64,000 nucleotides of DNA from Dehalococcoidia bacterium (GTDB lineage Bacteria > Chloroflexota > Dehalococcoidia > Dehalococcoidales > BS750m-G39). Positions 4,737 to 52,064 of this stretch are shown piece after piece. The translations under genes and the position numbers were made by a program. The notes under the pieces were generated by a model that ran no database searches, was not told the DNA's origin, and saw nothing but the letters and a program-made list of their open reading frames with translations. The stretch's first letter is position 1, and each line of letters begins with the position of its first letter. The stretch covers positions 9,887 through 73,886 of the forward strand of contig JASFHK010000005.1 in NCBI GenBank assembly GCA_050123275.1, given 5' to 3'.

Positions 4737-4760
4737 AGAGTCCTCCCCCTGAAGGCGGAT

Positions 4761-7636: not shown

Positions 7637-7637
7637 C

Positions 7638-13960: not shown

Positions 13961-13978
13961 GACTCGTTACCGCCTTTC

Positions 13979-27214: not shown

Positions 27215-28657
27215 TTAATCGACGATGCCGGGTATTTCGGAGAGTATCTGCTCTCTTACCGCGTCGGGCAGGCGGTGCCTGGGCTCGGCGATGAGCCGCT
27301 TGGCTTTCTCCCCCGCCTTCTGCCAGACGGCTTTGCCTCCCCTCTCTTCCCATTCCTCGCGGCTGAGCTGGTCGTTGAGAGTGGGCCGGTAGTGCTCGCG
27401 GCGCATAAAACGCCGGGTATGCTTGGCGGCGACGAAGTTGCCCCCCGGCCCCACCTCCTTGATGAGGTCGAAGGCGAGGGTATCGTCGCTGATCTTGATA
27501 CCGGCGGTGGCTCTCATTACCATGCCCAGTATCTCGTTATCAATAACAAACTTCTCGTAGCAGGCCGTCAGTGCGAATTCCATCATGCCGGCGGCGTCGT
27601 GGATAAAGTTAGACCCGGACAGGGCGCAGAGCAGGCTGCTTATCGCCGACTCGTAGCCGCTCTGGGCGTCGAGCACTTTGGAATCGGTCATACCGCCGGT
27701 GGCGTAGAAGGGGAGATGGTAAAACTGGGCCATCTGGGCGCCGGCGGCGTTGAGCAGCCCCATCTCCACCGAGCCCGCCAGGTAGTTGAGCGTCTGGAGG
27801 TCGGTGTTGGTGGCTACCGAGCCGAAGATAACCGGCGTCCCCGGCCTGACCAGCTGGCTGAGCATAACGCCCATCAGCGAGTCCGCCGTCTGTATCACCA
27901 GGTTACCCGCCAGCGTTATCGGCGAGGTGGCCCCGCAAAGCGGCTCGGAGGGACAGACCAGGGGCACGCCGCGCTGGGCGATTTCAATGATAAGGTCGCC
28001 GTACTTGGCGTCCATCTTGAGCGGGCTCATGATGCAGGCCACCATGGAGATGAGCGGGCGCTGGTTCAGCTTTTCGGCGGAGCCGGCGACAATCTCGGCC
28101 ATGCGTAATGCCTGCTTGACCCCCTCCGGCGTATAAACGCCGCCCATGATGTGCTTGGTGGTGTTGTCCAGGCCGGCAAAGAAGCGGTTGGCGTCAACCT
28201 GCTCGTAGGGCAACTCGTTGGGGTAGGTGGGCAGCATGAAAAGGTGGATGTTGTCCAGGCGGTTGACCAGCCGGGCGATGCGTTTCAGGTCTTTCAGTGA
28301 AGCCGGGCGCTTCTTTTTGGTAGCCGGCTCGTAGATATAGAGGGCGGTACCCCCCGTGCCGGTGTAAACCCGGGCGTCGCCGAGGAGAATGTCTTGTTTC
28401 TCCTCCTGCCCGCAGAGCCTGACCTCGGGCGGCGCCATGCCTATCAGCTTGCGGGCTTTGGCCTGGGGCAAACGCACTCGCCGTTCATCTTTGTCCACCC
28501 AGGCGCCGGCCTCCTCAAAGAGCTCGAGGGCTGCCTCCGAGTTTACCTCGAAGCCTACCTCCTCGATAACCCTCATCACGGTGCGGTCTATTTTGGCTAT
28601 AGAATCTTCGCTCAAGGGGCGGTAGCTACCGCCGGTTATGCCTCTTCTGGTAATCAT
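27215..28657 (-). CDS. MttB-family protein, second paralog, non-pyrrolysine
   Basis: The 480-aa ORF is uninterrupted and shows MttB-like sequence throughout. It is the first gene of the minus-strand string. Confidence 0.85.
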   Translation of the reverse strand: MITRRGITGGSYRPLSEDSIAKIDRTVMRVIEEVGFEVNSEAALELFEEAGAWVDKDERRVRLPQAKARKLIGMAPPEVRLCGQEEKQDILLGDARVYTGTGGTALYIYEPATKKKRPASLKDLKRIARLVNRLDNIHLFMLPTYPNELPYEQVDANRFFAGLDNTTKHIMGGVYTPEGVKQALRMAEIVAGSAEKLNQRPLISMVACIMSPLKMDAKYGDLIIEIAQRGVPLVCPSEPLCGATSPITLAGNLVIQTADSLMGVMLSQLVRPGTPVIFGSVATNTDLQTLNYLAGSVEMGLLNAAGAQMAQFYHLPFYATGGMTDSKVLDAQSGYESAISSLLCALSGSNFIHDAAGMMEFALTACYEKFVIDNEILGMVMRATAGIKISDDTLAFDLIKEVGPGGNFVAAKHTRRFMRREHYRPTLNDQLSREEWEERGGKAVWQKAGEKAKRLIAEPRHRLPDAVREQILSEIPGIVD

Positions 28658-32070: not shown

Positions 32071-34425
32071 ATGAAAGCATTCGACCACGTTGACGCCAAG
32101 ACCGTAAACGAAGCCGTTAAGTCGCTCGAAAAAGGCAAGGCCAGGCTCATCGCCGGCGGCACCGACCTGTTGAGCACGCTTAAGGATAAGATACTTCCCG
32201 AATACCCCGAAACCGTCGTCAATATCAAGACCATACCCGGCATGGACGACATCAAAGAGGACGGCAAGGGGCTGAAAATAGGCGCCCTGGCCAAGCTGGA
32301 TAAGATAGCCGGCTCGCCGGCGGTCAAGAAGAACTATAAAATACTGGCCGAAGCCGCCCGGGCCGTGGCCACCCCCCAGATTCGGCGCATGGGCACCATC
32401 GGCGGCAACCTCTGCCAGGACGTGCGTTGCTGGTACTACCGCTATCCCCACAGCGTGGGGGGCAGGATACTCTGCTACCTCAAAGGCGGCAAGGGCTGCT
32501 ACGCTTTAACACGGGAGAACCAGAACCACTCCATCTTCGGCGGCATGCGCGACGCCGACCCGCCCTGCACCTCGGCCTGTCCGGGTAGCGTTGAAATCCC
32601 CGTCTACATGAGCCAGATTAGAGAGGGCGATATTGAAGGCGCCGCCAAAACACTGCTCAAGAACAACCCCATCCCCGCCATAACGGGGCGGGTCTGCCCC
32701 CATTTCTGCGAGCAGCTCTGTAACCGCGGCGATTTCGACGAGGCGGTTTCGGTGAGGGATGTCGAACGTTTCATCGGCGACTACATCCTCGACCACGCCG
32801 CCAGTATCGTCAAGCCGCCCGCCAAAGACAGCGGCAAAAAAGTGGCTATCGTCGGCTCGGGCCCCGGCGGGCTCGCCGCCGCTTACTACCTTAGAATGGA
32901 AGGACATCGCGTCACCGTCTTCGAGCGCCGTGAGGAGGCCGGCGGCATGCTGGCCTACGTCATCCCCAACTACCGGCTGCCCAAGGATGTGGTCAGGCGC
33001 GTCATTAAAACGCTGGAAGGCATCGGTATCGAGTTCAAATGCAAGGTCGATGTCGGCAAGGACGTAACCCTGGAGAGCCTGAAGAAGGACTACGACAGCG
33101 TTTTCATCGGCAGCGGCGCCTGGGACCCGGTATCCATCGGGCTGGACGGCGAGGAGTCGACCCGCTTCGGTATGGAGCTCCTGGTCAATATCAACCGCGG
33201 TGTCAAAGAAGTCCCCGGTAAGAAAGTTCTCGTCATCGGCGGGGGCAACGCCGCCGTGGACGTGGCCGTCACCGCTTTGCGTCTGGGCGCCAAAGAGGCG
33301 ACCATGGCCTGCCTGGAATCTAGAGAAGAGATGCCGGCGCTGCCCTGGGAGATTGCTCAGGCCGAGGAACAGGGGGTTAAGATAATGCCTTCCTGGGGGC
33401 CCAAGCGGGTGCTCAAGGACGGCGGTAAGGTCACCGGCATGGAGCTGGTGCGCTGCGCCTCGGTTTTCGATAAAGAGGGCCGCTTCGCCCCCAAGCTGGA
33501 CGAGAGCACTAAAGAAACTGTCGAAGCCGACCAGATAATGATGGCGGTGGGCTACAGCACCGACCTCGACTTCGTTAAATCGTTAAAGGCTTTACAGACC
33601 GAGCGCGGCCTGATTGTCGCCGACCCCGAAACCCAGGCGACCAAGGTCGCAGGTATCTACGCCGGCGGCTCGATAACCCACGGGCCCGCCACCGTTATCG
33701 AGGCGGTTGCCGCCGGTAAACGGGCGGCGGCGGCCATGAATGCCTATTTGGGCGGCAAGCCGGCTCAAGCCGAAAAAGACGGCTCCTTGCTCAGTTTCAA
33801 TAACGATTATCTTAAAGAGACCAAGCGGGTGGAGATGCCCCAGCTGCCGGTGTCGCAGAGAAGCCTGGATAAAGAGGACGCTCTGGGCTTAAAGCAGGGC
33901 GATATCGAGGGCGAAGCCAACCGCTGTTTTAACTGCGGCTGCGTTTCCGCCAGCGCCTCCGACATGGGCGTGGTGCTCATGGCGCTTGGGGCCAGCCTAA
34001 AGATTGCCGGCCCCAAGGGCGAGAGGACGATTCCCGTCGCCGAGTTCTACGGCGCTTTGCGGCCCACCCTCGCCGAAGACGAAGTTCTCACCGGCATCGA
34101 GGTGCCCAAGCCCGCCGACGGCGCCAAGCAGAGCTTTATCAAGTTCCGGCTGCGCGAGTCCGTCGATTTCCCCATTGTCAGCATCGCCTCTATTCTCAAG
34201 GTCGAGGGCGGCGTCTGTAAGGACGCTCAAATCGCCCTGGGCGCGGTGGCCCCTATACCCGTGCGCGCCACGGCTGTGGAAAAGGCAATCAAGGGCAAGG
34301 CGCTCAACGCCGAGACGGCGGCAGCGGCCTCAGCGGCGGCTGTCGAGGGCGCCATACCGCTGGAGAATAACGCCCACAAGATTGAGATAACCAAGACGCT
34401 GGTGAAAAGGGTTATCCTCGAATAG
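32071..34425 (+). CDS. Molybdenum hydroxylase FAD-binding (CoxM/XdhB-like) subunit, interrupted by a 4-Cys loop and a GltD-like NAD(P)H/FAD module
   Basis: The ATG at 32071 follows GGAGAGAG. The FAD_binding_5-like N-terminus runs up to GTIGGNL. It is followed by CQDVRC...C...C and then a GltD-like region (VAIVGSGPGG; VLVIGGGNAAVD). The rest of the FAD domain and the CO-dehydrogenase-flavoprotein C-terminal domain then resume. Confidence 0.8.
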   Translation: MKAFDHVDAKTVNEAVKSLEKGKARLIAGGTDLLSTLKDKILPEYPETVVNIKTIPGMDDIKEDGKGLKIGALAKLDKIAGSPAVKKNYKILAEAARAVATPQIRRMGTIGGNLCQDVRCWYYRYPHSVGGRILCYLKGGKGCYALTRENQNHSIFGGMRDADPPCTSACPGSVEIPVYMSQIREGDIEGAAKTLLKNNPIPAITGRVCPHFCEQLCNRGDFDEAVSVRDVERFIGDYILDHAASIVKPPAKDSGKKVAIVGSGPGGLAAAYYLRMEGHRVTVFERREEAGGMLAYVIPNYRLPKDVVRRVIKTLEGIGIEFKCKVDVGKDVTLESLKKDYDSVFIGSGAWDPVSIGLDGEESTRFGMELLVNINRGVKEVPGKKVLVIGGGNAAVDVAVTALRLGAKEATMACLESREEMPALPWEIAQAEEQGVKIMPSWGPKRVLKDGGKVTGMELVRCASVFDKEGRFAPKLDESTKETVEADQIMMAVGYSTDLDFVKSLKALQTERGLIVADPETQATKVAGIYAGGSITHGPATVIEAVAAGKRAAAAMNAYLGGKPAQAEKDGSLLSFNNDYLKETKRVEMPQLPVSQRSLDKEDALGLKQGDIEGEANRCFNCGCVSASASDMGVVLMALGASLKIAGPKGERTIPVAEFYGALRPTLAEDEVLTGIEVPKPADGAKQSFIKFRLRESVDFPIVSIASILKVEGGVCKDAQIALGAVAPIPVRATAVEKAIKGKALNAETAAAASAAAVEGAIPLENNAHKIEITKTLVKRVILE

Positions 34426-34446
34426 AAGCTAGCTTAGAAGATTTGG

Positions 34447-34484
34447 TTCACCGGCCCATCGGTTTTGGGTCGGTGAATTTTTTT
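34447..34484 (+). terminator. Intrinsic terminator after the molybdenum hydroxylase operon
   Basis: A 12-bp stem TTCACCGGCCCA / TGGGTCGGTGAA with a 7-nt loop is followed by T7. The ~57 nt at 34434-34490 recur nearly identically at 44312-44368. Confidence 0.8.
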
Positions 34485-34495
34485 GGGGGGGGAAA

Positions 34496-34523
34496 GTGAG
34501 CCGCGGAGGACTCGCATCCTCGG
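34496..34523. repeat. tRNA-Lys 3'-end-derived fragment (att-like direct repeat, copy A)
   Basis: GTGAGCCGCGGAGGACTCGCATCCTCGG is identical over 28 nt to 45225-45252. Its first 19 nt match the 3' end of the tRNA-Lys at 45303-45378. Confidence 0.75.
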
Positions 34524-34526
34524 GCT

Positions 34527-35045
34527 CTATCTATTGAAGCGGGACATGTTCTTGCATTCTTCGACTTGTATTTCTTTTATGGATTCCCCGGGGCTGAGAT
34601 ATCCGAATGCTTTCTGCCTTACCGTCTCCAGCAAATCGCTAAGTACTAACTGCTCCTTCTCCGAGAGCGGCGATAGGATCTGCCGCATCAGCTCCCAGCT
34701 GGCTATGTTTGCTCCCTCGAAAACCTTGTTACCCTCGCTGGTTATCACCAGCCGCACCAACCTGCGGTCACGCAGGTCTCTCATCTTCTTGATCAGACCA
34801 CGCTTCTCCATGCGGTCGGCTATGAGGCTGATGGTGTTGGGGCTCCGGTCAAGAAATCGGGCTACGTCAGTCACTATTGCCTGACTACCGATGAGCTTTA
34901 TGGCCATGAGCACCGCATGGTGCTCGGTGGTGAGTCCTTCTTTGGCAAATACCGCGTCCTCACATTTGAGCACCAGATTGTAGGTCTGGTGAATAAGAAG
35001 CCAAGTACTGAGTAGGGGGCTATCAACGCCGAACTTAACCGCCAC
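34527..35045 (-). CDS. MarR family transcriptional regulator
   Basis: The 172-aa protein has a winged-helix region (VTDVARFLDRSPNTISLIADRMEKRGLIKKMRDLRDRRLV). The GTG start is preceded by AAGGAG. It is divergent from the archaellin gene. Confidence 0.85.
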   Translation of the reverse strand: MAVKFGVDSPLLSTWLLIHQTYNLVLKCEDAVFAKEGLTTEHHAVLMAIKLIGSQAIVTDVARFLDRSPNTISLIADRMEKRGLIKKMRDLRDRRLVRLVITSEGNKVFEGANIASWELMRQILSPLSEKEQLVLSDLLETVRQKAFGYLSPGESIKEIQVEECKNMSRFNR

Positions 35046-35156
35046 GCCTTCTCCTTAATTATATTATACAGTTTTTGTCAGCAAACTCTCCCGCTATTAT
35101 ACCAAAGTACCATCCAAAAAGTAATACTATATACCTATTTTTGTAAGATTCCTGTG

Positions 35157-35186
35157 TTGACAAAAGGAAAAAAGTGTGATTATACT
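35157..35186 (+). promoter_or_regulatory. Candidate sigma70-type promoter for the archaellum operon (TTGACA-N18-TATACT)
   Basis: The hexamers are at 35157-35162 and 35181-35186 in the marR/arlB divergent intergenic region. Confidence 0.5.
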
Positions 35187-35188
35187 TG

Positions 35189-35228
35189 TCATACACGAGC
35201 CTGTCATATACGAAACTATCGTATATGA
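35189..35228. promoter_or_regulatory. Candidate operator: half-site TCATACACGA plus a perfect inverted repeat TCATATACGA-N5-TCGTATATGA
   Basis: I read it directly. The 10-bp arms are at 35204-35213 and 35219-35228, and a 9/10 direct half-site is at 35189-35198. The element sits immediately downstream of the -10 hexamer. Confidence 0.45.
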
Positions 35229-35352
35229 ATAATTTGGATTAAGCTAAAACGGATTCTGGAACAGCTGACCTGGAAGCAACGAGATGTTAATTGGCAGAAG
35301 GTCAAAATGTACAGGGGGGTGAAGTTGCCCTTTTCGGGGGCAGCCCCTCATC

Positions 35353-35428
35353 TAGAGAGAGAGGAGGTGGTCGTATGTGATTTTAGGGAGGTGGTTGTAC
35401 GTGATTTTGAGGAAACGAAAATTAAGGA
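35353..35428 (+). repeat. Two short tandem direct repeats in the arlB leader
   Basis: GGAGGTGGTCGTATGTGATTTTAG and GGAGGTGGTTGTACGTGATTTTGAG are adjacent. They are followed by AGGAAACGAAAA occurring twice. Confidence 0.5.
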
Positions 35429-35472
35429 AACGAAAACCGGTGTATCTTCTTTGTTAAAGAAAGGAGAAAAAA

Positions 35473-36525
35473 ATGATTGACAAATTCATGAAAGCTATGC
35501 ACAGGCTTCACAAAGGACAGCGGGGCATGACCGGTCTGGAAACAGCCATTATCCTGATTGCCTTCGTGACAGTGGCTGCGGTGTTCGGCTACGCCGTACT
35601 GAGCGCCGGCATCTTCTCTGCGGAGCAGGGGAAGGAAACGGTCTACGCTGGCTTAGAGCAAGCCAAGAGTTCCATGGAGCTCAAGGGCTCGGTAATCGCC
35701 TACGGTGCTCCGGGAGATGAAGGGACAATCAACGACTGCGATGACGACAGCGACTGGACTGCCAGCGCAGGTGTGGCAATTACCCAGGCTATAGGTTACG
35801 GCGGTGGTCACAGCCTTCAGCTAACCCTTGATGGAACGACAACCAGTTCTGAGTTCGGCGGCGGTCTGGCAGCCTACGGCACCAGCTCTACCGCAGACTT
35901 GTCCCAGAAAAGCTATATCAACCTCTATGCTATGACGGATACTGATATGGCGGCTGGCGACTTGAAGTTACGAGTCAGTGACCAGGCTGATTGTACTGCA
36001 CCGCTGGAGACTCTAGACCTGCCAGCGCTAACTGCTGGTACCTGGACGCTGATCACCCTCACCCTTGATAATCCGGGCGTGGATCTGGGTATCTTGACTG
36101 TCGGCATAGAAGGTCCTGACATGACCGGAGCTGGCTATGATGCGATTGTCTACCTGGACAGCATTGTTGCCGGACCTCCTTATAACCATGCCGAGCTCAT
36201 TGTTTTCTCGGTGTCCAACGCTATCGCCGGTAAGCCGATAGACCTGACCCCAAGTCCAGACAACGTTACCGTAATCAGCTATACTGACCGCAATATTTTT
36301 GAGCCCAACATAACCTGGACTGTCAGCTTTGTCGGTCAGAACGACGGCGATTACCTGCTGGAGATGGGGGAGCAGGCACAGGTAGCGGTATCACTGGGTT
36401 TCCTAGCTGTTCCGCCAGGACCCAATGCTGAAATCGGCTTGCAGGTGAAGCCGCCTCATGGTTCCGTAATCAGCATTGAGCGGACGATACCAGCCAACAT
36501 AGATGCCGTTATGGATCTGTACTAG
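35473..36525 (+). CDS. arlB: Archaellin (archaeal flagellin, ArlB/FlaB family) with class III signal peptide and a ~155-aa inserted domain
   Basis: The sequence is MIDKFMKAMHRLHKGQRG | MTGLETAIILIAFVTVAAVFGYAVLSAGIFSAEQGKETVYAGLEQAKSSMELKGSV. This is the archaellin-specific N-terminus as in Methanomicrobia-type archaellins. The C-terminal beta-domain is archaellin-like. AGGAG lies 6 nt upstream of the ATG. Confidence 0.85.
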   Translation: MIDKFMKAMHRLHKGQRGMTGLETAIILIAFVTVAAVFGYAVLSAGIFSAEQGKETVYAGLEQAKSSMELKGSVIAYGAPGDEGTINDCDDDSDWTASAGVAITQAIGYGGGHSLQLTLDGTTTSSEFGGGLAAYGTSSTADLSQKSYINLYAMTDTDMAAGDLKLRVSDQADCTAPLETLDLPALTAGTWTLITLTLDNPGVDLGILTVGIEGPDMTGAGYDAIVYLDSIVAGPPYNHAELIVFSVSNAIAGKPIDLTPSPDNVTVISYTDRNIFEPNITWTVSFVGQNDGDYLLEMGEQAQVAVSLGFLAVPPGPNAEIGLQVKPPHGSVISIERTIPANIDAVMDLY

Positions 36526-36560
36526 GGAGACTTTAATCCCGAGATAACAAGATAACATGA

Positions 36561-36604
36561 GGCGCTCCCGGGGACGAGGGTAGGCAAAGTTCCCCGGGAG
36601 CGCC
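36561..36604 (+). promoter_or_regulatory. Perfect 14-bp-stem hairpin between arlB and the next gene (no U-tract)
   Basis: The stem is GGCGCTCCCGGGGA - 16 nt - TCCCCGGGAGCGCC. It begins 36 nt after the arlB stop. Confidence 0.6.
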
Positions 36605-36625
36605 GCACAGTCTTCGAGGAAAGAT

Positions 36626-37207
36626 ATGAACCCTGAGCAGAGAATAAAGGCTCTGGAGGACGAAGTAAAAGTCCTCAAGAACGAGGTAAAAGCGGTGCTT
36701 TTGGATATAAGAGAGCACTACCTTGGGCTGGAAAATCCGTTCAGCCTGCACAGGGTAACTCCGGGGCAGGAGCATCCGGCGGACATTCCCGGAGGAGGTG
36801 CAGCGCAGGATGTGACGCCTCCCCCCGAAGAGACCGAGGCGAGGAAGAAGGAGCCGGCCACACAGGAAGTGAACGGCAAGAAAACATCCAGCGTCCCCCA
36901 GAATATAGACCTTATAACCATCGTCGGATTAACACAATGGTCGGCTAAGGCGACATCGAGACTGGGCAAGACCAAGACGGAAGCACTGATCGAGGTCTAT
37001 CACACCACCGGTCGTCTTTCCCCCAGCCTCAGGGATGTGCTGATAAGATTGACTCGCCTTTCCGATAACGAAAACGGTGATGGACGGGTGGGATCGAGGG
37101 AATACCTGGCAATCCTTACCGAACTGGACAGCCTGATGAATAAAGAAGGTAGTCAGTTCGATGCCTCGCTCCTGTCCATTCTGGCTGATGGGGAGGGACG
37201 ACCATAG
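36626..37207 (+). CDS. ArlD/E (FlaD/E)-domain-like archaellum accessory protein with N-terminal coiled coil
   Basis: The N-terminus is heptad-like (QRIKALEDEVKVLKNEVKAVLLDIRE), followed by a Pro/Glu-rich linker. The C-terminal segment LITIVGLTQWSAKATSRLGKTKTEALIEVYHTTGRLSPSLRDVLIRL resembles the FlaD/E domain pattern. It sits in the archaellum operon position. Confidence 0.55.
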   Translation: MNPEQRIKALEDEVKVLKNEVKAVLLDIREHYLGLENPFSLHRVTPGQEHPADIPGGGAAQDVTPPPEETEARKKEPATQEVNGKKTSSVPQNIDLITIVGLTQWSAKATSRLGKTKTEALIEVYHTTGRLSPSLRDVLIRLTRLSDNENGDGRVGSREYLAILTELDSLMNKEGSQFDASLLSILADGEGRP

Positions 37208-37215
37208 ATAAGGTA

Positions 37216-37668
37216 GTGGTAACCGTACTGCTTATTATCACCGGGGTGGTCTGTACCCTGGCAGTGTTTAACGCCGTTTACCCGGCTATAGGTTCTGCCA
37301 GCGGGGCAATGGTAAGCATCGCCGGAAATATAAACGACCGCATTAAGAGCAAGATGGAAATAGTGCAGGTATCCTGCGAAGACAGCGACATTACCCTCTG
37401 GGCAAAGAATGTCGGCAGCACCAGGATAGGGAGCATCGAGGACGGCGATGTCTTCTTTGGCCAGGAAGGTAATTTCGCACGGATACCCTATGATCAGGAC
37501 GGCTCACCGAAACCATGCTGGAACTACAGCATCGAGAACGATTCCGAATGGGGGCCTACAGCCACGCTGAAAATAACCATATATCTAGCTCAGGCACCTT
37601 CCGGCGCCCATTTCGTAAAGGTCGTGGCTCCGAACGGAGTCTTGGATGAATATCAGTTCAGCAATTAG
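37216..37668 (+). CDS. arlF: ArlF (FlaF)-like archaellum stator protein
   Basis: The 150-aa protein has a single N-terminal hydrophobic helix (VTVLLIITGVVCTLAVFNAVYPAI) followed by a beta-rich domain. The GTG start and the operon position before the ArlG-like and ArlH genes fit. Confidence 0.6.
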   Translation: MVTVLLIITGVVCTLAVFNAVYPAIGSASGAMVSIAGNINDRIKSKMEIVQVSCEDSDITLWAKNVGSTRIGSIEDGDVFFGQEGNFARIPYDQDGSPKPCWNYSIENDSEWGPTATLKITIYLAQAPSGAHFVKVVAPNGVLDEYQFSN

Positions 37669-37676
37669 GGAAAGCC

Positions 37677-38171
37677 ATGGAGAATGCCATAGTTTCGCTG
37701 CTCTGCATCGCTCTTTTTCTGACGGGGACATTGAACCTTGCCGAAACATCCTTATCGGTGGTAGACAAGATTTCGAGTTCCTGGAGACAGGCAGAGGAGC
37801 AGAGTTATGAGATCAGGCAGACCGGGATTGCCACGGTAAATGCCACCGTGCCCGATGCCAGCCATGTGGAGATAACCATCATTAATGAAGGGGCGGTTTC
37901 TTTAGGAGATTTCGACCGGTGGGACGTTATCATCCGCTACCAGGATGGTACCGCGGTGTGGCTGCCTTACAACTCCGTGCCGGGCTGGACGGTTGATAGT
38001 ATATCTTTTGAAGGCAGTCCAGAGACCTTCGACCCCGATATTTTGAACGCCGGTGAGGAGATGCTGCTTGTCCTGAGACTTGACCCTCCTCTGCCCTCGG
38101 AGTCCACTGCGGAAGCGGCCATATCAACACCGAGAGGCATAGTAGCCAGAGCCATGTTCGCGATGGAGTAG
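37677..38171 (+). CDS. arlG: ArlG (FlaG)-like archaellum protein
   Basis: The 164-aa protein has an N-terminal helix (AIVSLLCIALFLTGTLNLA) plus a beta-rich domain. The F-versus-G assignment rests on gene order only. Confidence 0.55.
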   Translation: MENAIVSLLCIALFLTGTLNLAETSLSVVDKISSSWRQAEEQSYEIRQTGIATVNATVPDASHVEITIINEGAVSLGDFDRWDVIIRYQDGTAVWLPYNSVPGWTVDSISFEGSPETFDPDILNAGEEMLLVLRLDPPLPSESTAEAAISTPRGIVARAMFAME

Positions 38172-38175
38172 AGCT

Positions 38176-38892
38176 ATGAGTCACAATGAAGATGAAAAAC
38201 GCCCTATAGGGAGCGCAATCTCCACCGGCCATGCCGAGATTGATAAGAAGGTCGGCGGAGGTATCCCGGTGGGGTCGCTTACCCTTATCGAGGGGCAGTC
38301 AGACGCCGGCAAGTCAGTGTTTGCCCAGCAGATGATCTGGGGCTCGCTGCGCGGTAATCACAGGGTGCTGGTGTTTACCACCGAGAACTCGGTCCGAAGC
38401 CTCAACACCCAGATGGAGAGCCTCGGTCTTGACATAATGGATGCTTTGCTCCTGGGGTGGCTTAAAATCTATCCTGTGGAGACATCAAGGCTGGAGCTAG
38501 TGGGCACTTTCGACGCTGTCTTGGACGCCATCGAGCACCACACTGCCTACGGCATGGTGGTGGTCGATTCCCTGACGCCGGTAATCGCTCACACTTCGGT
38601 AGGGGATATCATCAGCTACTTCGAGAGGTGCAAGCGACTGTGCGATGATGGTAAGACTATCATCAATATCGCTCACACCTATGCCTTCAACGAGGAGGTA
38701 CTGGCCCGCATCAGGTCGGTCTGTGATGCCCATTTCCGGTTACGCATTGAGGAGGTGGGGGACAAGCTGATTAAGGTACTGGAGGTGGCCAAGGTCCGGG
38801 GGGCGGACAAGGACACGGGAAATATACTCAGCTTCGAGGTTGAACCGGGCATGGGCATGCGGGTAATGCCTATCTCTCAAGCCAAGGCTTAA
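38176..38892 (+). CDS. arlH: ArlH (FlaH) KaiC/RecA-like ATP-binding archaellum protein
   Basis: ISTGHAEIDKKVGGGIPVGSLTLIEGQSDAGKSVFAQQ contains the Walker A motif, and MVVVDSL is Walker B-like. The protein is 238 aa long. Confidence 0.85.
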   Translation: MSHNEDEKRPIGSAISTGHAEIDKKVGGGIPVGSLTLIEGQSDAGKSVFAQQMIWGSLRGNHRVLVFTTENSVRSLNTQMESLGLDIMDALLLGWLKIYPVETSRLELVGTFDAVLDAIEHHTAYGMVVVDSLTPVIAHTSVGDIISYFERCKRLCDDGKTIINIAHTYAFNEEVLARIRSVCDAHFRLRIEEVGDKLIKVLEVAKVRGADKDTGNILSFEVEPGMGMRVMPISQAKA

Positions 38893-38904
38893 GAAAGGAA
38901 CGAT

Positions 38905-40617
38905 ATGCCACAGGTAAGCCTGCCATTTACGAAGGAAAACAAAGCCGATAAACACGGAGAGGACTTCTTTCAGTGTACTCTCTTCCAGATGTTGCCCAAG
39001 CCGGCGCAGGAAGCCAGCCAGCGCCATCCCCACCTGCTGGAGTACCTGCACATGGTGCCGGTGGCGGAAGTCGGCATGCCCAAGTACTACTCCCAGCTTA
39101 CGCGCCGTATGCAGGACATCAGTCACCCCAACCTGATCTATCCGGTGACCGAGGGTGTCTTCGCACATATTTACCCGGACCTTCACGACGGCAGGGATAT
39201 GTACATCTCCGTCGAGCCTGTGCTTGTCGAGAAGCTTGACAAGCTGATGCAGTCTCTGGAAAGGCGGATGCTGGATATGGGTGACCGTCTGGATACTGTG
39301 AGCACCGATGACGATAAAAAAGAAGCGTTCGTGAGGTGCGTAGATGAGAATTTTACCACGGGGAGGACCGGGGGGGGCTTGTTCAGACGGTCCGGCAAGA
39401 ATGGAAAAATCAGGGTGACGCCGCACCAGATGGAGGGACTCAAGTATCTCATCGTGAGGGACAAGATAGGGCTGGGCATACTGGAGCCCATGGTTCACGA
39501 TCGCTATGTAGAAGACATCAGCTGCAGCGGCCTGGGCACTATTTTTATAGAGCACAAGATCTTCCGCAGCCTGAAGACCCCGATCAGCTTCGCCAGCCTG
39601 GAGGAACTGGACGAGTTCGTCCTCAGGCTCTCCGAGCGAATCAAAAAGCCGGTGAGCTTCCGCAATCCAATAGTGGATGCCTCTCTCCCCGACGGCTCGA
39701 GAATAAACATCGTCTACGGACGCGATATTTCAAAGCGGGGTTCTAATTTCAGCATCCGTAAGTTCAGCGAGACGCCAATGTCGGTCATGGAGCTCATCGA
39801 ACTGGGAACGTTAGACTACAGGATGGCGGCCTATCTTTCCCTCGTCATCGGCGAGGGGATGAACGTTTTCGTTGCCGGAGAGACCGCCTCAGGCAAGACA
39901 ACCACACTGAATGCGGTGACCACCTTTATCCACTCAAATGCCAAGATAGTTAGCATCGAGGATACTCCTGAGCTTCAGGTACCGCACAAGAACTGGATAA
40001 GGGAGGTGGTACAGACTACCAAGGAGCAGTCGGAAACCGCGGTCACCATGTTCGACCTGCTCAAGGCGGCGCTCAGGCAGCGGCCGAACGAAATACTGGT
40101 GGGTGAGATTAGGGGCCCGGAAGGGAACATTGCCTTTCAGGCGATGCAGACCGGGCACTCGGTGATGGCCACCTTCCACGCTGCTTCGGTGGAGAAACTA
40201 ATCCAGCGGCTCACCGGTAATCCGATAAGCGTCCCCAAGGCATATATTGACAATCTTAACGTGGTCGTGGTGCAAAGCGCGGTCAAGCTGCCTACCGGGA
40301 AAACCGGCCGGCGGGTGCTCAGCATCAACGAGGTGATAGGCTTTGACCCGATTAAGCAGTCGTTTTCCTTCGTGGAAGTATTCCGGTGGGACCCGGTCAA
40401 TGATGTTTTTGAATTTACCGGGGATATGAACAGCTATCTATTGGAACAGAAGATAGCTTTAAAGCGTGGTATCCCTTCCCACAATAAGAAGCGGATTTAT
40501 CTTGAGCTTGACCGCCGGACGCAAATTCTGGAGAGGTTGCATAAGGAACAGGGGGTTTCAGGATTCTATGAACTTCTTCAAGTCCTGGCCAAAGCGCAAA
40601 GAGAAGGGCTCTTTTAA
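38905..40617 (+). CDS. arlI: ArlI (FlaI) archaellum assembly/motor ATPase (type II/IV secretion NTPase superfamily)
   Basis: It has Walker A VAGETASGKTT, an IEDTPEL motif, RQRPNEILVGEIRG and FQAMQTGHSVMATFHA. The protein is 570 aa long. Confidence 0.9.
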   Translation: MPQVSLPFTKENKADKHGEDFFQCTLFQMLPKPAQEASQRHPHLLEYLHMVPVAEVGMPKYYSQLTRRMQDISHPNLIYPVTEGVFAHIYPDLHDGRDMYISVEPVLVEKLDKLMQSLERRMLDMGDRLDTVSTDDDKKEAFVRCVDENFTTGRTGGGLFRRSGKNGKIRVTPHQMEGLKYLIVRDKIGLGILEPMVHDRYVEDISCSGLGTIFIEHKIFRSLKTPISFASLEELDEFVLRLSERIKKPVSFRNPIVDASLPDGSRINIVYGRDISKRGSNFSIRKFSETPMSVMELIELGTLDYRMAAYLSLVIGEGMNVFVAGETASGKTTTLNAVTTFIHSNAKIVSIEDTPELQVPHKNWIREVVQTTKEQSETAVTMFDLLKAALRQRPNEILVGEIRGPEGNIAFQAMQTGHSVMATFHAASVEKLIQRLTGNPISVPKAYIDNLNVVVVQSAVKLPTGKTGRRVLSINEVIGFDPIKQSFSFVEVFRWDPVNDVFEFTGDMNSYLLEQKIALKRGIPSHNKKRIYLELDRRTQILERLHKEQGVSGFYELLQVLAKAQREGLF

Positions 40618-42073
40618 TAAAGACCTCCTCGGCGTAGACCTATTCTGCCAGATGACATATATGTCGGCCGTGGCTACGTCGGGGCTGACGCGCAGTCAGA
40701 TATTTGAAAGCGCGGCGCGCCTTCCCTATACCTCGTCGCGTTACTTCAAGGACGTGCATTTTCTGGCCCAGAAGCTGAATTATGACTATGCCCAGGCCTG
40801 CCGCATTGTCGGTGATGCCACTAAAGAGCCGGAGCCAAAAGCGCTTCTCCTTCGTCTTTCAGGCTGTGTCGCCTCGGGGGAGCCTGAGGCTAACTTTCTG
40901 GCCCGCGAAGCCTCTGTGATGGGGGAAGTATACGGCAATGGGTACGAGCGGTCGGTGGAAACGCTGCGCAAATGGACTGATGCCTATACCGCCCTAATCC
41001 TGTCGGCGGCACTAGTCATCGTTGTCGCCGTGGTCTCCATGATGATATACCCGGTGGCGCCGACCTTCGTTATAACTCTCTGCGGGCTGGTGCTGATGGT
41101 AACCGCACTCGGCTCCTGGATTATGCACCGGGCCTCTCCCAAGGAGGTAAAGACACACTCACTGGCCGATACTTCAGCGGAGCGTAAACTATCTCATCTC
41201 CTGGTGAAAATATTCCTGCCGGTGACCGCATTAGCCTGCCTGCTTATGGTCTTGGGAAATATGAGCATGGGAAGCATAATGCTGGTGGCTGCGGCGCTGC
41301 TGTTCCCGCCCGGTGCGGTAATTATGTGGGAAGACCGTAAGATTGATAATCGGGACCAGGACATCGCCGGCCTGCTGCGCTCCTTGGGTGGAATTACCAA
41401 GGCAATAGGAACGACGGTCTCGGAGGCTTTGTCCAGGCTGGACCTCCGCTCGGTTGCCTCACTGCGGGGGGGAACCAAGAGGCTGCGTGACCGGCTTGGT
41501 CTGGGAATCAAGCCGGAACTCTGCTGGGACAGGTTTATCGCTGAGACGGGGAGCGAGCTGATTAACCGGAGCGTGCGTACCTTCTGGGATGGGGTCAGCC
41601 TGGGAGGCGATCCCCAGGAGGTTGGAAACCGTTCGTCCCTGTTCGCCATGAGGGTAGCGCTACTCCGGGCGAAGCGGAGGATGGTATCATCCAGCTTTAC
41701 CTGGCTGTGCATTACCATGCATGCGGCTATCGTCGGCCTGCTGGTGTTCATCTATGAGGTGATGCAGACATTTTCCGGCGCGCTGCAGAATATGGGGAGT
41801 GTAGAGAACGGGGCTTTGGGCGAAATGCCGAGCCTGCCCAGTTTTACGTTTCTGCTCGGCGGCAGCCAGTTGGAGCTGCTGCACTATGTGGTCATAGCCG
41901 TGATAATAGTGCTCACCGGCGCTAATGCCGTAGCCATTAAGGTGACCGGCGGCGGGCACAGCTATAAGCTCTTTTTCTTCCTGAGCATAACACTAGCCAT
42001 ATCGGGTGCATGCTTTATCTTTATTCCGAACGTGGTAGACATGATATTCGGTAGCCTGCCGCCGATGCAGTAG
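40568..42073 (+). CDS. arlJ: ArlJ (FlaJ) polytopic membrane platform protein (T2SSF-like)
   Basis: I chose the start at the ATG at 40568, which overlaps the arlI 3' end by 50 nt. An alternative ATG lies at 40652. The conserved region begins DLLGVDLFCQMTYMSAVATSG, and multiple TM segments follow. Confidence 0.8.
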   Translation: MNFFKSWPKRKEKGSFNKDLLGVDLFCQMTYMSAVATSGLTRSQIFESAARLPYTSSRYFKDVHFLAQKLNYDYAQACRIVGDATKEPEPKALLLRLSGCVASGEPEANFLAREASVMGEVYGNGYERSVETLRKWTDAYTALILSAALVIVVAVVSMMIYPVAPTFVITLCGLVLMVTALGSWIMHRASPKEVKTHSLADTSAERKLSHLLVKIFLPVTALACLLMVLGNMSMGSIMLVAAALLFPPGAVIMWEDRKIDNRDQDIAGLLRSLGGITKAIGTTVSEALSRLDLRSVASLRGGTKRLRDRLGLGIKPELCWDRFIAETGSELINRSVRTFWDGVSLGGDPQEVGNRSSLFAMRVALLRAKRRMVSSSFTWLCITMHAAIVGLLVFIYEVMQTFSGALQNMGSVENGALGEMPSLPSFTFLLGGSQLELLHYVVIAVIIVLTGANAVAIKVTGGGHSYKLFFFLSITLAISGACFIFIPNVVDMIFGSLPPMQ

Positions 42074-42086
42074 AAAGGAGGACGCT

Positions 42087-42734
42087 GTGGATTCAATGGT
42101 AGCTGCTGCGGTCGTCGCTGCTTCAGCAGTGATAGTCGTTCTCATTATCGTGGTTATGAGCAAGGTACGGTCCAGACGGTTGAGTCGGACTCAAGTCGAG
42201 ACAGAGCGACAGGAGGTCACCAGCTTTGAACGCCGCACCTGGCTTGAAAACCAGCGGCAGCAGCCCAAGCCGAGGATGGCTGGGGAGAACCTGATACCTT
42301 CGCTGGATGAGCAGCCGGAAGAGCAGCCGGATGAGTTGCGGCCAAGTGCTCCGGTCTCTCCGGGCACGAAGCCTGGCGTTGCTTCTCCATACCCGGCAGA
42401 GGAGCCAGTAGGCGCCGGTGTAGCTAAAGAGGTTAAGGTTCCAGCGGCAGGAGAACCAGTAGGCGCCGGTATAGCTAAAAAGGCTGAGGTTCCAGCGGCA
42501 GGGGAGCCGGAAGGCTCCGGTCTGGCTAAAAAGGTTGAGATCCCAGCGATAGACGATGAAGCGGAGTTTGCCGAAGAAACGGTGAAACGGGGAGCCGATG
42601 CCGGACTGAGCGCCTTCATGATTGAAATGTCCGAGGACGACGGGCTGTCCAAGCTGGCCGAAAATCTGGAGGACCTTGATGTCGGCGATCTGGCCGAGAT
42701 AGCAAGGGATATCCTAAGTAAAAGGGCGAAATGA
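42087..42734 (+). CDS. Hypothetical membrane-anchored acidic protein with a 3x ~17-aa tandem repeat
   Basis: The GTG start lies 5 nt after AAGGAGG. The N-terminal TM helix is AAAVVAASAVIVVLIIVVM. The repeats are AGEPVGAG(V/I)AK(E/K)x(K/E)VPA-like. It starts 13 nt after the arlJ stop. Confidence 0.5.
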   Translation: MDSMVAAAVVAASAVIVVLIIVVMSKVRSRRLSRTQVETERQEVTSFERRTWLENQRQQPKPRMAGENLIPSLDEQPEEQPDELRPSAPVSPGTKPGVASPYPAEEPVGAGVAKEVKVPAAGEPVGAGIAKKAEVPAAGEPEGSGLAKKVEIPAIDDEAEFAEETVKRGADAGLSAFMIEMSEDDGLSKLAENLEDLDVGDLAEIARDILSKRAK

Positions 42735-44278
42735 ACAGAAGCAGAGTGTACCGTGAAGCGAGACGCTTTCTTCAGGCTCTGGTAGTGACAGTCATACTGG
42801 TTTTGACCATGTCGGTACCCGTTGTCGCCGATGACCCTGAGGTTGATGTTTATGTCGACGTCAAGCCTACCTCGGGGCCGGTGGGCACTACGGTTCAGGT
42901 CATAATAACCGGCTTGGTCGGTGAAGGGCAGGTGGCCGTTTCGTTCGCCAACAAGAACAACATAGTGGCCACGGCGGAGCCTGATGACTGGGGCTACTGT
43001 ATGGTCAGCTTCAACGTCGATACCTATCCCGCCGGTGTTTACGGCATCTGGGCAGAGTTCAATACAGAGGAATACGATACCCAGTTCGTCCTGGAGCCGT
43101 CCATCGAGCTCAATAAGCCCAGCGGTGGCGTCGGCGATAACGTAGTCGTCAGCGGCAATGGTTTCGGTAGGGAAACAGGGATAACGGTTTACCTTGATGA
43201 TATTGAGGTGAGCTTCGAAGAAGTGGAAACAGACGAGGATGGCACTTTTACCAACGTTTCCTTCACCATCCCGGAGGCTTGCAAGGGGGAACATGAAATA
43301 AAGGTGAAAGACAAACGGGGGAACGAAGCTGATGCTTCCATATTGGTAAAGCAGGCGGCGGAAATAGCGCCCATGTCAGGAACCCCTGGCTCCGAGGCGA
43401 GCATTTGCGGCACCGGCTTTGGGGCAGACGGCAATATCGTCGTCTATTTCGATGACGAGGATGTTATGGGCACGATTGCTAGTGACCGCGGCAGCTTCTG
43501 TATCGAGTTTCCCATTCCATCGTGCGAATATGGCGAACACACGGTCAAGGTGAGCGACGGGACCAACTCGTTCTACATGGACTTCGCTATCACTGCAAGC
43601 ATGGTCTTAACGCCAAGCACGGGCCATGTGGGGGGATATATCACTGTCCAGGGAATGGGCTTTAAAGAGGGTCTGCCGGTTACCATTACCTACGACAAGG
43701 ACATCATGCAGACCACTAACGCCGACTTGCAGGGAGGCTTCTCGGTGACTTTTCAGGTGCCGCCGAGCATTGCCGGGGAGTACCTGGTGAAGGCTACGGA
43801 CGGCGATACAACCGTTTCCGCAACTTATACCGTTGAGTCGACCCCCCCGCCGGTACCCTCCCTCCTTCTGCCCAGCGAAGGGGCAGATATGACGCAGGGG
43901 GTGTACTTCGATTGGCAAGGAGTGAGCGACCCGAGCGGCGTCTCCTATAGTCTGGTCGTGGCCGCGGACGCCGATTTTTCTAATGCATTGTTGATTAAAG
44001 AGGGACTGACCGAATCTGAATACAGCCTCTCAGGTGAGGAAGCGCTGCCCCCAAGCGAGACCGCCTACTACTGGCGGGTGAAAGCAACCGATGGTGCTTC
44101 CAACGCCAGCGAATGGTCGGTTACGCGTACGTTTTTTGTCAGTCCTGTTTCCGCCACGGCCGGGTTCATAGGCTTCTTTTCCGATATGCCCGGATGGGCC
44201 AAGTACAGTATGATGGCACTCGGTCTGGTACTTCTCGGCTTTATCTGTTTCTGGGCGGGAAGCATGAGGGCCTCCTGA
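42731..44278 (+). CDS. Cell-surface protein with four IPT/TIG-like Ig-fold repeats, an FN3-like domain and a C-terminal TM anchor
   Basis: The start has an ATGA overlap with the upstream gene, and a signal peptide is present. Four ~85-aa repeats share an SG.vG..v.v.G.GF pattern (SGPVGTTVQV, SGGVGDNVVVSGNGFG, SGTPGSEASICGTGFG, TGHVGGYITVQGMGFK). The C-terminal helix is MALGLVLLGFICFWAG. Confidence 0.6.
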   Translation: MNRSRVYREARRFLQALVVTVILVLTMSVPVVADDPEVDVYVDVKPTSGPVGTTVQVIITGLVGEGQVAVSFANKNNIVATAEPDDWGYCMVSFNVDTYPAGVYGIWAEFNTEEYDTQFVLEPSIELNKPSGGVGDNVVVSGNGFGRETGITVYLDDIEVSFEEVETDEDGTFTNVSFTIPEACKGEHEIKVKDKRGNEADASILVKQAAEIAPMSGTPGSEASICGTGFGADGNIVVYFDDEDVMGTIASDRGSFCIEFPIPSCEYGEHTVKVSDGTNSFYMDFAITASMVLTPSTGHVGGYITVQGMGFKEGLPVTITYDKDIMQTTNADLQGGFSVTFQVPPSIAGEYLVKATDGDTTVSATYTVESTPPPVPSLLLPSEGADMTQGVYFDWQGVSDPSGVSYSLVVAADADFSNALLIKEGLTESEYSLSGEEALPPSETAYYWRVKATDGASNASEWSVTRTFFVSPVSATAGFIGFFSDMPGWAKYSMMALGLVLLGFICFWAGSMRAS

Positions 44279-44325
44279 CTACATGTAGTGCCTGGATTAG
44301 AATCAGCGAGGTTAGAAAAGCTGGG

Positions 44326-44362
44326 TCACCGGCCCATCGCTTTTGGGTCGGTGAATTTTTTT
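44326..44362 (+). terminator. Intrinsic terminator, second copy of the 34447-34484 module
   Basis: The stem GTCACCGGCCCA / TGGGTCGGTGAA is followed by T7. The flanks (44312-44368) are ~85-90% identical to 34434-34490 by eye. Confidence 0.75.
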
Positions 44363-44369
44363 GGTGGGT

Positions 44370-45071
44370 CTAGTCGAGGATGGTGAAAGTCTCCAGGATG
44401 TGCTCGAAGTGGACTCCGTCTTCCTCGGCCAGCCCTTCCGTCGACTCCAGAAATATTGGCCACGATTCTAGAAATATTGACCAGACGAACCCGTCATGGT
44501 CGAAGCAGACGTACCTTACGATTGACGTAATGGGTAATTCAACGTACGGCCCTTCGTATTCTATAAACGGGTCACTTTGAAATTGGCAATAAGAGAATTC
44601 CACCCGCTCCCCCACCACGCCGGCGATAGTGACCGGAGACCGGTCGATAATCTCAAAATCACGATTGTTTTTACTTGTAGCAAATTTCGCAATCTCATCC
44701 TCGAGGGCAGCTTTTGCGTCAGAGTTATCTAACGAACTAGCCTCACGTGCAGCTACATGAAGGTAGGAGCGTTCCAACAACTGGTTTTCCTCCACAATAG
44801 AACGGTCAAAAGACACCGCTGTATACCTGCCAAATACATAGGCAGGTGTTTCATCTCCCACATGTAAGTAGGTAACCATTTCTTCGTAGTTTGTAGGGTA
44901 TTCGAAGGAGAAACGGGCATCGCCTTCGCGTAGAGTGAATTTATTATAGTTCTCGTTGATTGCGTCGATTGTGGAGCTGGTGGGTTTGGCACAACCGACG
45001 CTCATAGCGAGCGCTATCAACATCATGGCGAGCAACAGGCAAAGGCAGCGGTTTGAACTTTTTGCAGACAA
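44370..45071 (-). CDS. Hypothetical lipoprotein
   Basis: It has a signal peptide with a lipobox (LAMSVGC) and is 233 aa long. Sampled lines give ~50% GC, visibly lower than neighbouring genes. Confidence 0.6.
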   Translation of the reverse strand: MSAKSSNRCLCLLLAMMLIALAMSVGCAKPTSSTIDAINENYNKFTLREGDARFSFEYPTNYEEMVTYLHVGDETPAYVFGRYTAVSFDRSIVEENQLLERSYLHVAAREASSLDNSDAKAALEDEIAKFATSKNNRDFEIIDRSPVTIAGVVGERVEFSYCQFQSDPFIEYEGPYVELPITSIVRYVCFDHDGFVWSIFLESWPIFLESTEGLAEEDGVHFEHILETFTILD

Positions 45072-45175
45072 TTTCGCTATTTTCCCTTCGCACCCCGCTA
45101 TGCGCGGCTCTATTATAGCAGAAGATTTTGCCGATGGGGGCTATAGGTAACGCTAAAAGCAGGAAGAATTGTAAA

Positions 45176-45330
45176 GGTGGTGGGGAAAAGGTACAAAGGA
45201 CGAGGACTGGGGAGGGGTAAAGTGGTGAGCCGCGGAGGACTCGCATCCTCGGAGGCGTGGCGGGAAAAGGTGGCAGAGGACGAGGACTGGGGAGGGGTAG
45301 GGTGGTGAGCCGCGGAGGACTCGAACCTCC
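45176..45330. repeat. Tandem ~80-nt duplication comprising the tRNA-Lys 3' end (including CCA) plus ~50 nt of its downstream flank
   Basis: Unit 1 (about 45183-45252) and unit 2 (about 45262-45330) share GGGAAAAGGT...GGACGAGGACTGGGGAGGGGTA..GTGGTGAGCCGCGGAGGACTCG. Unit 2 runs into the functional tRNA. Unit 1 carries the diverged tail GCATCCTCGG, which is also present at 34496-34523. Confidence 0.7.
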
Positions 45331-45378
45331 AACCGGCTGATTAAGAGTCAGCTGCTCTGCCAGTTGAGCTAGCGGCCC
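45303..45378 (-). tRNA. tRNA-Lys (anticodon CTT), CCA encoded
   Basis: I folded the cloverleaf by hand. Acceptor stem: GGGCCGC/GCGGCTC. D arm: GCTC-AACTGGCA-GAGC. Anticodon arm: GCTGA-CTCTTAA-TCAGC. T arm: GGAGG-TTCGAGT-CCTCC. Discriminator A plus CCA follow, for 76 nt in total. Confidence 0.95.
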
Positions 45379-51719: not shown

Positions 51720-52064
51720 GTTCGTTCTCCTAACATGTGAGTGGTCGGTTTTGTGCGTGTAGTACTTTTGGTATTCAACTAGAACCATAGTACCCCACCC
51801 ACCAGTTTAATGTCAAGAGTACTAAAACTGTATTAAAGCCACATTACCCACCGTTTTCTGACGCCATCAGGCATATAAAGTACCAGTACTATAGGGATAT
51901 TTTTGCCACCGGGCATCCCACTGCCGTAATGCCCCTTCCGTCACCCTACCGGAGTAAGCCCTACCAGAGTCATCCTACTAAATACCCCTCCAATCTACGA
52001 CTATCTCGCTATTCTTCGCCAGGCACGCCTGTGGGAAAATTTAAGTGTGATGAGGATAGGTGTG

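Follow-up and report, generated by a model that had tools for sequence, protein, structure and literature searches.

How did an archaellum (arl) operon come to lie next to a lysine tRNA gene, bracketed by fragments of that same gene, in a Dehalococcoidia bacterium? Bacterial archaella have only recently been described, and the question arises at a 64-kb stretch of contig JASFHK010000005.1 (GCA_050123275.1), here called the window, whose positions serve as coordinates throughout. From left to right, the elements concerned are a terminator module (T1), a tRNA-Lys 3'-end fragment (copy A), a marR gene, the arl operon, surface genes, a second terminator module (T2), a lipoprotein gene, a second tRNA-Lys fragment (copy B) and the functional tRNA gene, i.e., the order given in an earlier reading of this DNA (the original prediction). 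We consider it on balance probable that the segment between A and B was acquired horizontally as an island, when a circular molecule recombined with the chromosome by a single crossover at tRNA-Lys-derived sequence.

Repeats at the two ends of the arl segment

ARAGORN and Rfam agree on a single tRNA gene in the window, a tRNA-Lys(CTT) with encoded CCA on the minus strand at 45303-45378, with a promoter-like site at 45430-45402; Rfam finds no RNA family in the island besides tRNA. The 28-mer GTGAGCCGCGGAGGACTCGCATCCTCGG occurs exactly twice, in direct orientation, at 34496-34523 (copy A) and 45225-45252 (copy B), and no match is expected by chance (100 shuffles, even at three mismatches). The real 3' end of the tRNA (45305-45332) matches this 28-mer at 79%, with the initial 19 nt in common (21 nt between the tRNA and copy B once the CCA complement is counted) and a diverged tail that reads CGAACCTCC in the functional tRNA vs. 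CGCATCCTCGG in copies A and B. The place of the functional gene, and the identity of A and B over 28 nt including a tail that this gene lacks, had both been read correctly in the original prediction.

As a tRNA-Lys 3'-end fragment, copy A covers 34484-34523 (minus strand) and abuts the marR stop codon; its 28-mer is preceded by a 12-nt remnant of the flank found downstream of the tRNA, and on the minus strand a hairpin (-17.7 kcal/mol, z = -3.7) falls just past the marR stop. Copy B (45223-45252), with its CCA complement and diverged tail, forms together with a piece of flank (F1, 45177-45222) the first unit (45177-45256, minus strand) of an 80-nt tandem duplication, in which 45177-45243 and 45257-45323 are 87% identical, much as had been predicted. 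Each unit consists of ~46 nt of tRNA-downstream flank plus a tRNA 3' end, the second flank (F2, 45257-45302, minus strand) lying between copy B and the functional tRNA.

A terminator likewise occurs in two copies. T1 (34416-34490, plus strand; a 13-14-bp hairpin followed by T7, -29 kcal/mol, z = -3.0) comes directly after the stop codon (34423-34425) of a FAD/flavoprotein gene in a molybdenum-hydroxylase operon, and T2 (44291-44368, plus strand) stands between convergent surface-protein and lipoprotein genes. Both are G+C-rich hairpins of 11-14 bp, then T7. They are 88% identical over 64 nt without gaps (34427-34490 vs. 44305-44368), and the gapped alignment, also at 88%, extends to 34416-34490 vs. 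44291-44368 and takes in the final three codons of the upstream flavoprotein gene. The module, put at 57 nt in the original prediction, is thus longer (64 nt ungapped, up to 78 nt gapped). If indels are tolerated, the homology between A and B likewise stretches leftwards (34484-34523 vs. 45208-45252, 40 of 45 columns), so that the whole left border (34416-34523) equals the T2 region (44291-44368) plus the B region (45208-45252) minus the 839 nt between them (44369-45207), with order and orientation kept, 88-89% identity and a 28-nt perfect block. The 839 nt absent from the left border hold the lipoprotein gene and most of F1, and the edges of this lipoprotein cassette show G-rich microhomology.

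By short-word BLAST, neither the window nor ~170 loci from other organisms contain any additional copy of the T module, copy A, the F flank or the tRNA core, and a search of 2.9 million viral contigs in IMG/VR for the 28-mer, the F flank and the T module was negative. We rejected a viral or proviral origin of the att-like sequences on the IMG/VR result. Within the 64 kb of the window and these loci of other organisms, the data also exclude a dispersed repeat resembling miniature inverted-repeat transposable elements (MITE) or repetitive extragenic palindromes (REP), the latter having been named as a possible objection to the original prediction.

Could the arrangement be a product of assembly? 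The contig is metagenome-assembled and could have been misjoined through the tRNA-Lys 3' end or a terminator hairpin; the junctions do lie at repeats, and two shorter assemblies break at or near them. Such an artefact is nevertheless extremely improbable, given that the shared repeats are merely 21-39 nt long and that the FAD gene, T1, A and marR are contiguous, together with the island, in an independent Logan contig (L001 in our numbering of the loci and contigs compared) at 99.9% identity, and also in the gene table of a contig from the Joint Genome Institute (JGI). The left junction is thereby present in three independent assemblies, and since samples and assemblers differ, a chimera is unlikely; L001, moreover, continues without a break from T2 across the lipoprotein gene, F1 and B to an additional flank unit.

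Window and L001 are 99.9% identical over 13.6 kb, and what differs is almost wholly confined to the flank unit of ~47 nt that separates copy B from the tRNA core after it (window 45253-45302 vs. L001 13508-13554), where strain L001 carries a variant, F3, that differs markedly from F2. The replacement of F2 by F3 in otherwise 99.9% identical sequence indicates that recombination is ongoing at this array of flank plus tRNA fragment, which varies between strains.

Composition and relatives of the operon

The repeats coincide with a compositional break. G+C content at third codon positions (GC3) is 0.55-0.70 (mean 0.634) in all 11 genes between A and B and averages 0.784 in the 36 other genes of the window (p = 4e-6, Mann-Whitney); overall GC is 0.536 inside the segment vs. 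0.591 on either side, and the values for first and second codon positions (GC1, GC2) are nearly equal inside and outside. GC3 steps from 0.78 in the flavoprotein gene to 0.66 in marR on the left, and from 0.55 in the lipoprotein gene to 0.73 in a giant surface-protein gene on the right, i.e., at the positions of A and B, and the tetranucleotide distance has its maximum over 35-45 kb. As a control we took 74 other arl loci whose flanks could be used. There, the GC3 of arl minus that of the flanks has a mean of -0.003 (sd 0.052) and only 3% reach -0.13, by which low GC3 as a generic trait of arl genes was rejected. The break suspected in the original prediction is thus real, sits at the repeats and is not a general property of such loci.

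What the segment carries is a genuine archaellum cluster of the arl2 type, as known from Chloroflexota, in which gene set and order match those of the published clusters, i.e., arlB, arlCDE-like, arlG-like, arlF-like, arlH, arlI and arlJ (PMC12488501). The module common to relatives spans 35346-44278 on the plus strand (Pfam, NCBIfam; GC3 0.57-0.70) and all of its genes lie on that strand. It opens with arlB (35473-36525; Pfam Arch_flagellin, 7e-19), whose product has a class III signal peptide at its N-terminus (...KGQRG/MTGLETAIILIA). An arlCDE-like gene encoding 193 aa follows (36626-37207; no family match, with homologs at the same position in 52 loci), and then come arlG-like (37216-37668; ArlG match 1.6e-6) and arlF-like (37677-38171; ArlF match 7e-5) genes, both matches being below the curated cut-off and in the expected arlG-arlF order. 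The core motor genes are arlH (38176-38892; FlaH/ArlH, 2e-79), arlI (38905-40617; T2SSE, 1e-40) and arlJ (40568-42073; ArlJ/FlaJ, 2.5e-132), and arlJ is followed by genes for a 215-aa membrane protein with 17-aa repeats (42087-42734) and a 515-aa TIG/Ig surface protein (42731-44278; Pfam, NCBIfam). Divergent from arlB lies the gene of a 172-aa MarR-family regulator (34527-35045, minus strand; Pfam MarR, 1.5e-8), and the A+T-rich region between the two (35046-35345) contains predicted sigma-70-like promoters placed face to face (35157-35186 on the plus strand, 35207-35179 on the minus strand; both 11/12). At the far end is the gene of a putative lipoprotein of 218-233 aa (44370-45071, minus strand), which has no Pfam, NCBIfam or PHROG match and the lowest GC3 among the long genes of the window.

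With ArlI as the query, genome and metagenome scans gave matches of 80% on a 4-kb Guaymas Chloroflexi contig, 60-64% in Dehalococcoidia metagenome-assembled genomes (MAGs) and 54-56% in archaea; with the larger protein collection searched afterwards, the nearest relatives are Chloroflexi/Dehalococcoidia MAGs at 60-94%. The closest operon (L175) is 94% identical in ArlI, 97% in ArlH and 91% in ArlJ, and its DNA is 81-87% identical over 35350-43644, where the L175 contig ends; its homolog of the 215-aa protein has 174 aa and is 59% identical. Between the core arl genes of the two loci, synonymous divergence (dS) is 0.17-0.39 and the ratio of nonsynonymous to synonymous divergence (dN/dS) is 0.07-0.36, hence the operon, which is intact, is under purifying selection.

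The surroundings of the operon in its relatives are different. Upstream of arlB, L175 (93-4476) has genes for a GAF histidine kinase, a GerE-type response regulator, a flavodoxin-like protein and a CheY-like protein, and the same kinase, regulator and CheY genes are found at 74-81% identity in a second relative, L178 (3-2215; ArlI 77%). A GerE-type response regulator and/or CheY-like gene also directly precedes arlB in eight more distant Dehalococcoidia loci (L003, L006, L008, L009, L019, L096, L102 and L108). No kinase, response regulator or CheY gene lies upstream of arlB in the window, where homology to L175 starts at ~35346, in the arlB leader, and the marR-arlB intergenic region shows no homology to the L175 arl locus. 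Since this start is directly downstream of the L175 TTTATATA box (L175 4480-4576 compared), promoter and regulator appear to have been exchanged. The sequences suggest a regulator swap in which the response regulator and CheY went out and marR with sigma-70-type promoters came in, and the operon may now be under the control of MarR. By tblastn, marR has a match only in L001 among the arl loci compared, and marR, the 215-aa protein and the lipoprotein gene are absent from the 80 genome-scan arl loci. T2 was considered as the native end of the arl module and rejected, as it is absent after the homologous gene in L178. The comparison with related genomes proposed with the original prediction thus places their copies of the operon at another locus, where these repeats are missing.

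Composition agrees with a foreign home for these genes. The L175 contig has ~54% GC (genomes of the L175/L178 type are at about 54-55%), its flanking genes have a GC3 of 0.56-0.71 vs. 0.57-0.73 in its arl genes, and in L175 and L178 alike flank and arl GC3 are the same (0.56-0.72). The arl GC3 of window and L175 is close (0.65 vs. 0.68), and the flank GC3 of the two loci is 0.19 apart. The operon is compositionally at home in ~54-55% GC genomes and out of place in this host.

The flanks have other relatives. Homologs of the flavoprotein gene are at best 77-80% identical, and the names attached to homologs of flanking genes are mixed (Dehalococcoidia 67%, 'Deltaproteobacteria' 71%). The most host-like genomes are those of L082 and L083, both with a GC3 of 0.80 (L082 codon usage correlates with that of host genes at r = 0.97), which retain the operon of ferredoxin, molybdopterin-subunit and flavoprotein genes at a dS of 0.57-0.97. 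Downstream of it they carry RNase H-like and dnaN genes, other relatives have an MFS transporter gene there, and neither arl nor tRNA-Lys was found downstream of the molybdenum operon in L082, L083 or the other relatives examined. The closest host-like genomes show no linkage between arl and the molybdenum-hydroxylase operon.

These data also bear on an old, vertically inherited arl cluster, whose repeats would stem from local tandem duplication or deletion near the tRNA and whose low GC3 would reflect gene-specific constraints. Such a history would be in line with the published analysis, which favours one ancient transfer from archaea into Chloroflexota, then vertical descent and loss (Nat Microbiol 2025, PMC12488501), and the island is present in all three samples where the locus was seen, with tandem duplication clearly active beside the tRNA. 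We regard it as very unlikely here, given that GC3 is depressed in marR and the lipoprotein gene and not in the arl genes alone, that other arl loci show no such depression, and that the kinase/response regulator/CheY context conserved in relatives is gone, with homology breaking off at the arlB leader. Furthermore, the arl genes are separated by a dS of ~0.3 from those of an organism with very different genomic GC3, which is less than the 0.57-1.0 that separates the flanking operon from its closest relatives.

Possible routes of insertion

The segment is probably a tRNA-associated genomic island of known type with an unusual archaellum cargo. With pathogenicity or fitness islands and with integrative and conjugative or mobilizable elements (ICE/IME), which have attL/attR repeats of tyrosine recombinases at tRNA 3' ends, it shares its site at a tRNA 3' end and direct repeats derived from the tRNA on either border. 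Its composition changes sharply, as theirs does, and its ~10.7 kb hold accessory genes for motility, surface proteins and a regulator. In such islands, a tyrosine or serine recombinase gene usually adjoins the tRNA. Unlike them, this segment has no integrase, excisionase or mobility gene: as originally predicted, no integrase, excisionase or transposase is found among its 11 open reading frames (ORFs) with Pfam, NCBIfam and PHROGs. The tRNA-proximal gene, at the spot where an integrase would be expected, encodes the putative lipoprotein. Also unlike typical islands, the perfect pair is formed by A and B, i.e., by a pseudo-tRNA fragment with a non-tRNA tail and not by A and the functional tRNA, the terminator is duplicated too, and the tandem array of 80-nt flank-plus-fragment units is strain-variable. 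Among 5.8 billion proteins, the lipoprotein itself has no more than 10 homologs; those examined, of 47-57% identity, lie in other chromosomal contexts without a tRNA, and these contexts, together with its GC3, led us to reject this gene as an ancestral neighbor of tRNA-Lys.

We postulate that the island, comprising the ~10.7 kb between A and B (marR, the arl2-type operon, two surface/envelope genes, T2, the lipoprotein gene and F1), would have received its arl module from a lower-GC bacterium of the L175/L178 type (~54-55% GC). Only the portion from the arlB leader onwards would have been carried over, without the kinase, response regulator and CheY module, and it would have been coupled here to marR and to new divergent promoters of the sigma-70 type. 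The island may then have arrived as a circle and entered the chromosome by one crossover inside tRNA-Lys-derived sequence that already lay downstream of tRNA-Lys(CTT). The crossover probably fell in the 28-nt core plus tail, which is the longest perfect identity between the two sides. As an example, a chromosome reading flavoprotein gene, T1, G-run, [28-mer], F2, tRNA and a circle reading [28-mer], marR, arl, T2, lipoprotein gene, F1 would, by a crossover in the 28-mer, yield the observed order, and other crossover points within the duplicated stretch would give the same product. The right copy could have gained the 839-nt lipoprotein cassette later, or the left copy could have lost it by deletion. 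As catalysts, both RecA and a tRNA-targeting integrase encoded elsewhere remain candidates.

The preference for a single crossover stems from the composite nature of the duplication. A Campbell-type insertion duplicates the homology that circle and target have in common, and a plain integrase footprint duplicates the core only. In a Campbell-type event, terminator and tRNA fragment would for this reason both reappear on either side of the insert with order and orientation unchanged, and homologous capture of this kind fits the duplicated composite better than a plain integrase footprint does, though we keep both as candidates. As in the insertion of plasmids or suicide vectors and the re-insertion of specialised transducing phages, the composite direct duplication is far longer than a recombinase core, and the longest perfect identity (28 nt) is at one end of the duplicated stretch. 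Unlike in a clean Campbell-type insertion, the copies are ~88% identical and differ by the 839-nt cassette.

A classical tRNA-targeted integrative island, in which a tyrosine or serine recombinase acted at the tRNA-Lys 3' end or a relic of it, is a possible though less than probable alternative. A and B would then be cores of the attR/attL type, the integrase would since have been lost or would act in trans, as in a mobilizable satellite, and the likeness of T1 and T2 would be unrelated, e.g., due to a locally copied terminator. This alternative is supported by the position at a tRNA 3' end and by perfect direct repeats of 28 nt that coincide exactly with the boundaries in composition, and the tail beside the 21-nt core, non-tRNA and yet the same in A and B, is what an attP arm would leave; the 28-mer tail fits this reading also. 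B plus F1 are moreover laid out like the attP-like junction between tandem elements, and the tRNA-proximal unit that differs between strains 99.9% identical elsewhere suggests ongoing recombination. What it leaves unexplained is the duplication, in the same order, of a second and unrelated module, the 64-78-nt T module; in addition, the lipoprotein gene takes the place of an integrase at the tRNA-proximal end, none is found among the window ORFs scanned, and IMG/VR holds no counterpart of the 28-mer, F flank or T module. An insertion framed by tRNA-Lys-derived repeats, as put forward in the original prediction, is hence supported, whereas the integrase that its site-specific version would call for was not found in the island or among the scanned ORFs of the window.

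Several observations weigh against insertion by a single crossover, or limit what the comparisons can say about it. To carry both terminator and tRNA flank, the circle must earlier have resided at an equivalent locus, which is an extra assumption. Among the annotated ORFs scanned across the window there is no recombinase gene or remnant, and the dispersal of a repeat family is excluded only for the window and for the loci of other organisms. The empty site that the original prediction proposed to look for did not turn up by exact pattern, by exact-protein look-ups or in relatives at 78-80% identity. A pattern of terminator hairpin, 5-35 nt and an intact tRNA 3' end had 0 matches in JGI metagenomes, and exact look-ups of flank proteins for an island-free variant returned only island-bearing or right-flank contigs. 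Relatives traced through the FAD-fusion protein (77-80% identical) keep the three-gene operon and differ on both sides; in L082 and L083 the upstream side, too, departs from the window, and with synteny lost on both sides, the lack of arl at their operon is not a true empty attB. The flanks of L175 and L178 span 4.5 and 2.3 kb, respectively, and could belong to a larger mobile module. Finally, a tRNA lies within 10 kb at 8 of 80 GTDB arl loci, with no consistent tRNA-Lys(CTT), by which a general link between arl clusters and tRNA genes was rejected; the absence of any such association makes this a single case, and the arrangement of an arl operon bracketed by tRNA-Lys repeats is so far unique.

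Neighboring genes and the distribution of archaella

Several features in and around the island deserve mention in their own right. Within the 215-aa protein gene, three tandem 51-nt repeats (42394-42546) encode its 17-aa repeats (P-A-A-G-E-P-V-G-A-G-...-K), and the arlB leader contains a 25-nt tandem duplication in the window (~35362-35411). No prepilin peptidase gene (ArlK/PibD, Peptidase_A24) was found among the scanned ORFs of the island or the window, and it may be encoded elsewhere in this genome. In L176 (GCA_002011475.1), whose arl locus is 71% identical, DUF5658 and Peptidase_A24 genes come after the cluster (13723-14528), and a JGI contig that carries the Sir2 protein and the right-flank gene order of the window has a DUF5658 gene three genes further on.

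On its other side, tRNA-Lys adjoins the gene of the giant surface protein (2,080 aa; 45546-51788, minus strand), with PKD, VWA, CARDB and InlB B-repeat domains; the gene has internal ~261-nt repeats and an atypical tetranucleotide profile, and its GC3 of 0.73 is nearer that of the host. Further to the left, Rfam reports the pyrrolysine insertion element of mttB (PYLIS_3; 47.9 bits, gathering score 38) at 27592-27691 (minus strand), within the ORF 27215-28657. As this MttB-family gene has no in-frame stop codon, it represents a non-pyrrolysine homolog; its neighbors encode another member of the MttB family and a corrinoid protein. At the left end (4-9947) are a [NiFe]-hydrogenase large-subunit fragment and the maturation genes hypF, hypD and hypE, and 882-3125 encodes a response-regulator/pyridine-nucleotide-oxidoreductase/ferredoxin fusion protein. 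That the host is a bacterium, probably of the Chloroflexota, agrees with the window itself, where bacterial status is shown by intrinsic terminators, sigma-70-like promoters, a CCA encoded in the tRNA gene, and genes for DnaJ and DegV.

Three of the other arl loci have GC3 dips relative to their flanks, namely L080 (-0.18), L078 (-0.15) and L156 (-0.12), without flanking direct repeats or tRNA genes, and they may represent further recent transfers. A search for flanking repeats at these three and at L045 and L081, i.e., at arl loci with GC3 dips or a nearby tRNA-Lys(TTT), was negative.

Archaella have been reported from Litorilinea aerophila, SAR202 and Dehalococcoidia, and overall from 243 of 3,780 Chloroflexota genomes in a patchy distribution, in an analysis that mentions no tRNA genes, islands, integrases or mobile elements (PMC12488501). 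Unlike the clusters described there, the operon of the window has apparently been relocated between bacteria recently, with marR and repeat borders, and unlike its relatives, it has no response regulator or CheY gene upstream; no prepilin peptidase gene was seen in its island. At the level of sequence, it thus provides an instance of an apparent transfer, from bacterium to bacterium, of a complete operon that is under purifying selection, with insertion scars at a tRNA gene. If the pattern proves wider, part of the patchiness of archaella among Chloroflexota would be due to secondary transfers, and the locus would illustrate the rewiring that a foreign multi-protein motor undergoes when it reaches a new host.

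An integrase-less island targeting tRNA-Lys might still be mobile, excising via its flanking repeats and re-inserting through a recombinase provided in trans or through homologous capture, a prospect that we consider unlikely. Were it nonetheless the case, archaellar motility would spread as a plug-in module, possibly beyond the described lineages, and its patchy distribution would partly reflect transfers, not repeated loss alone.

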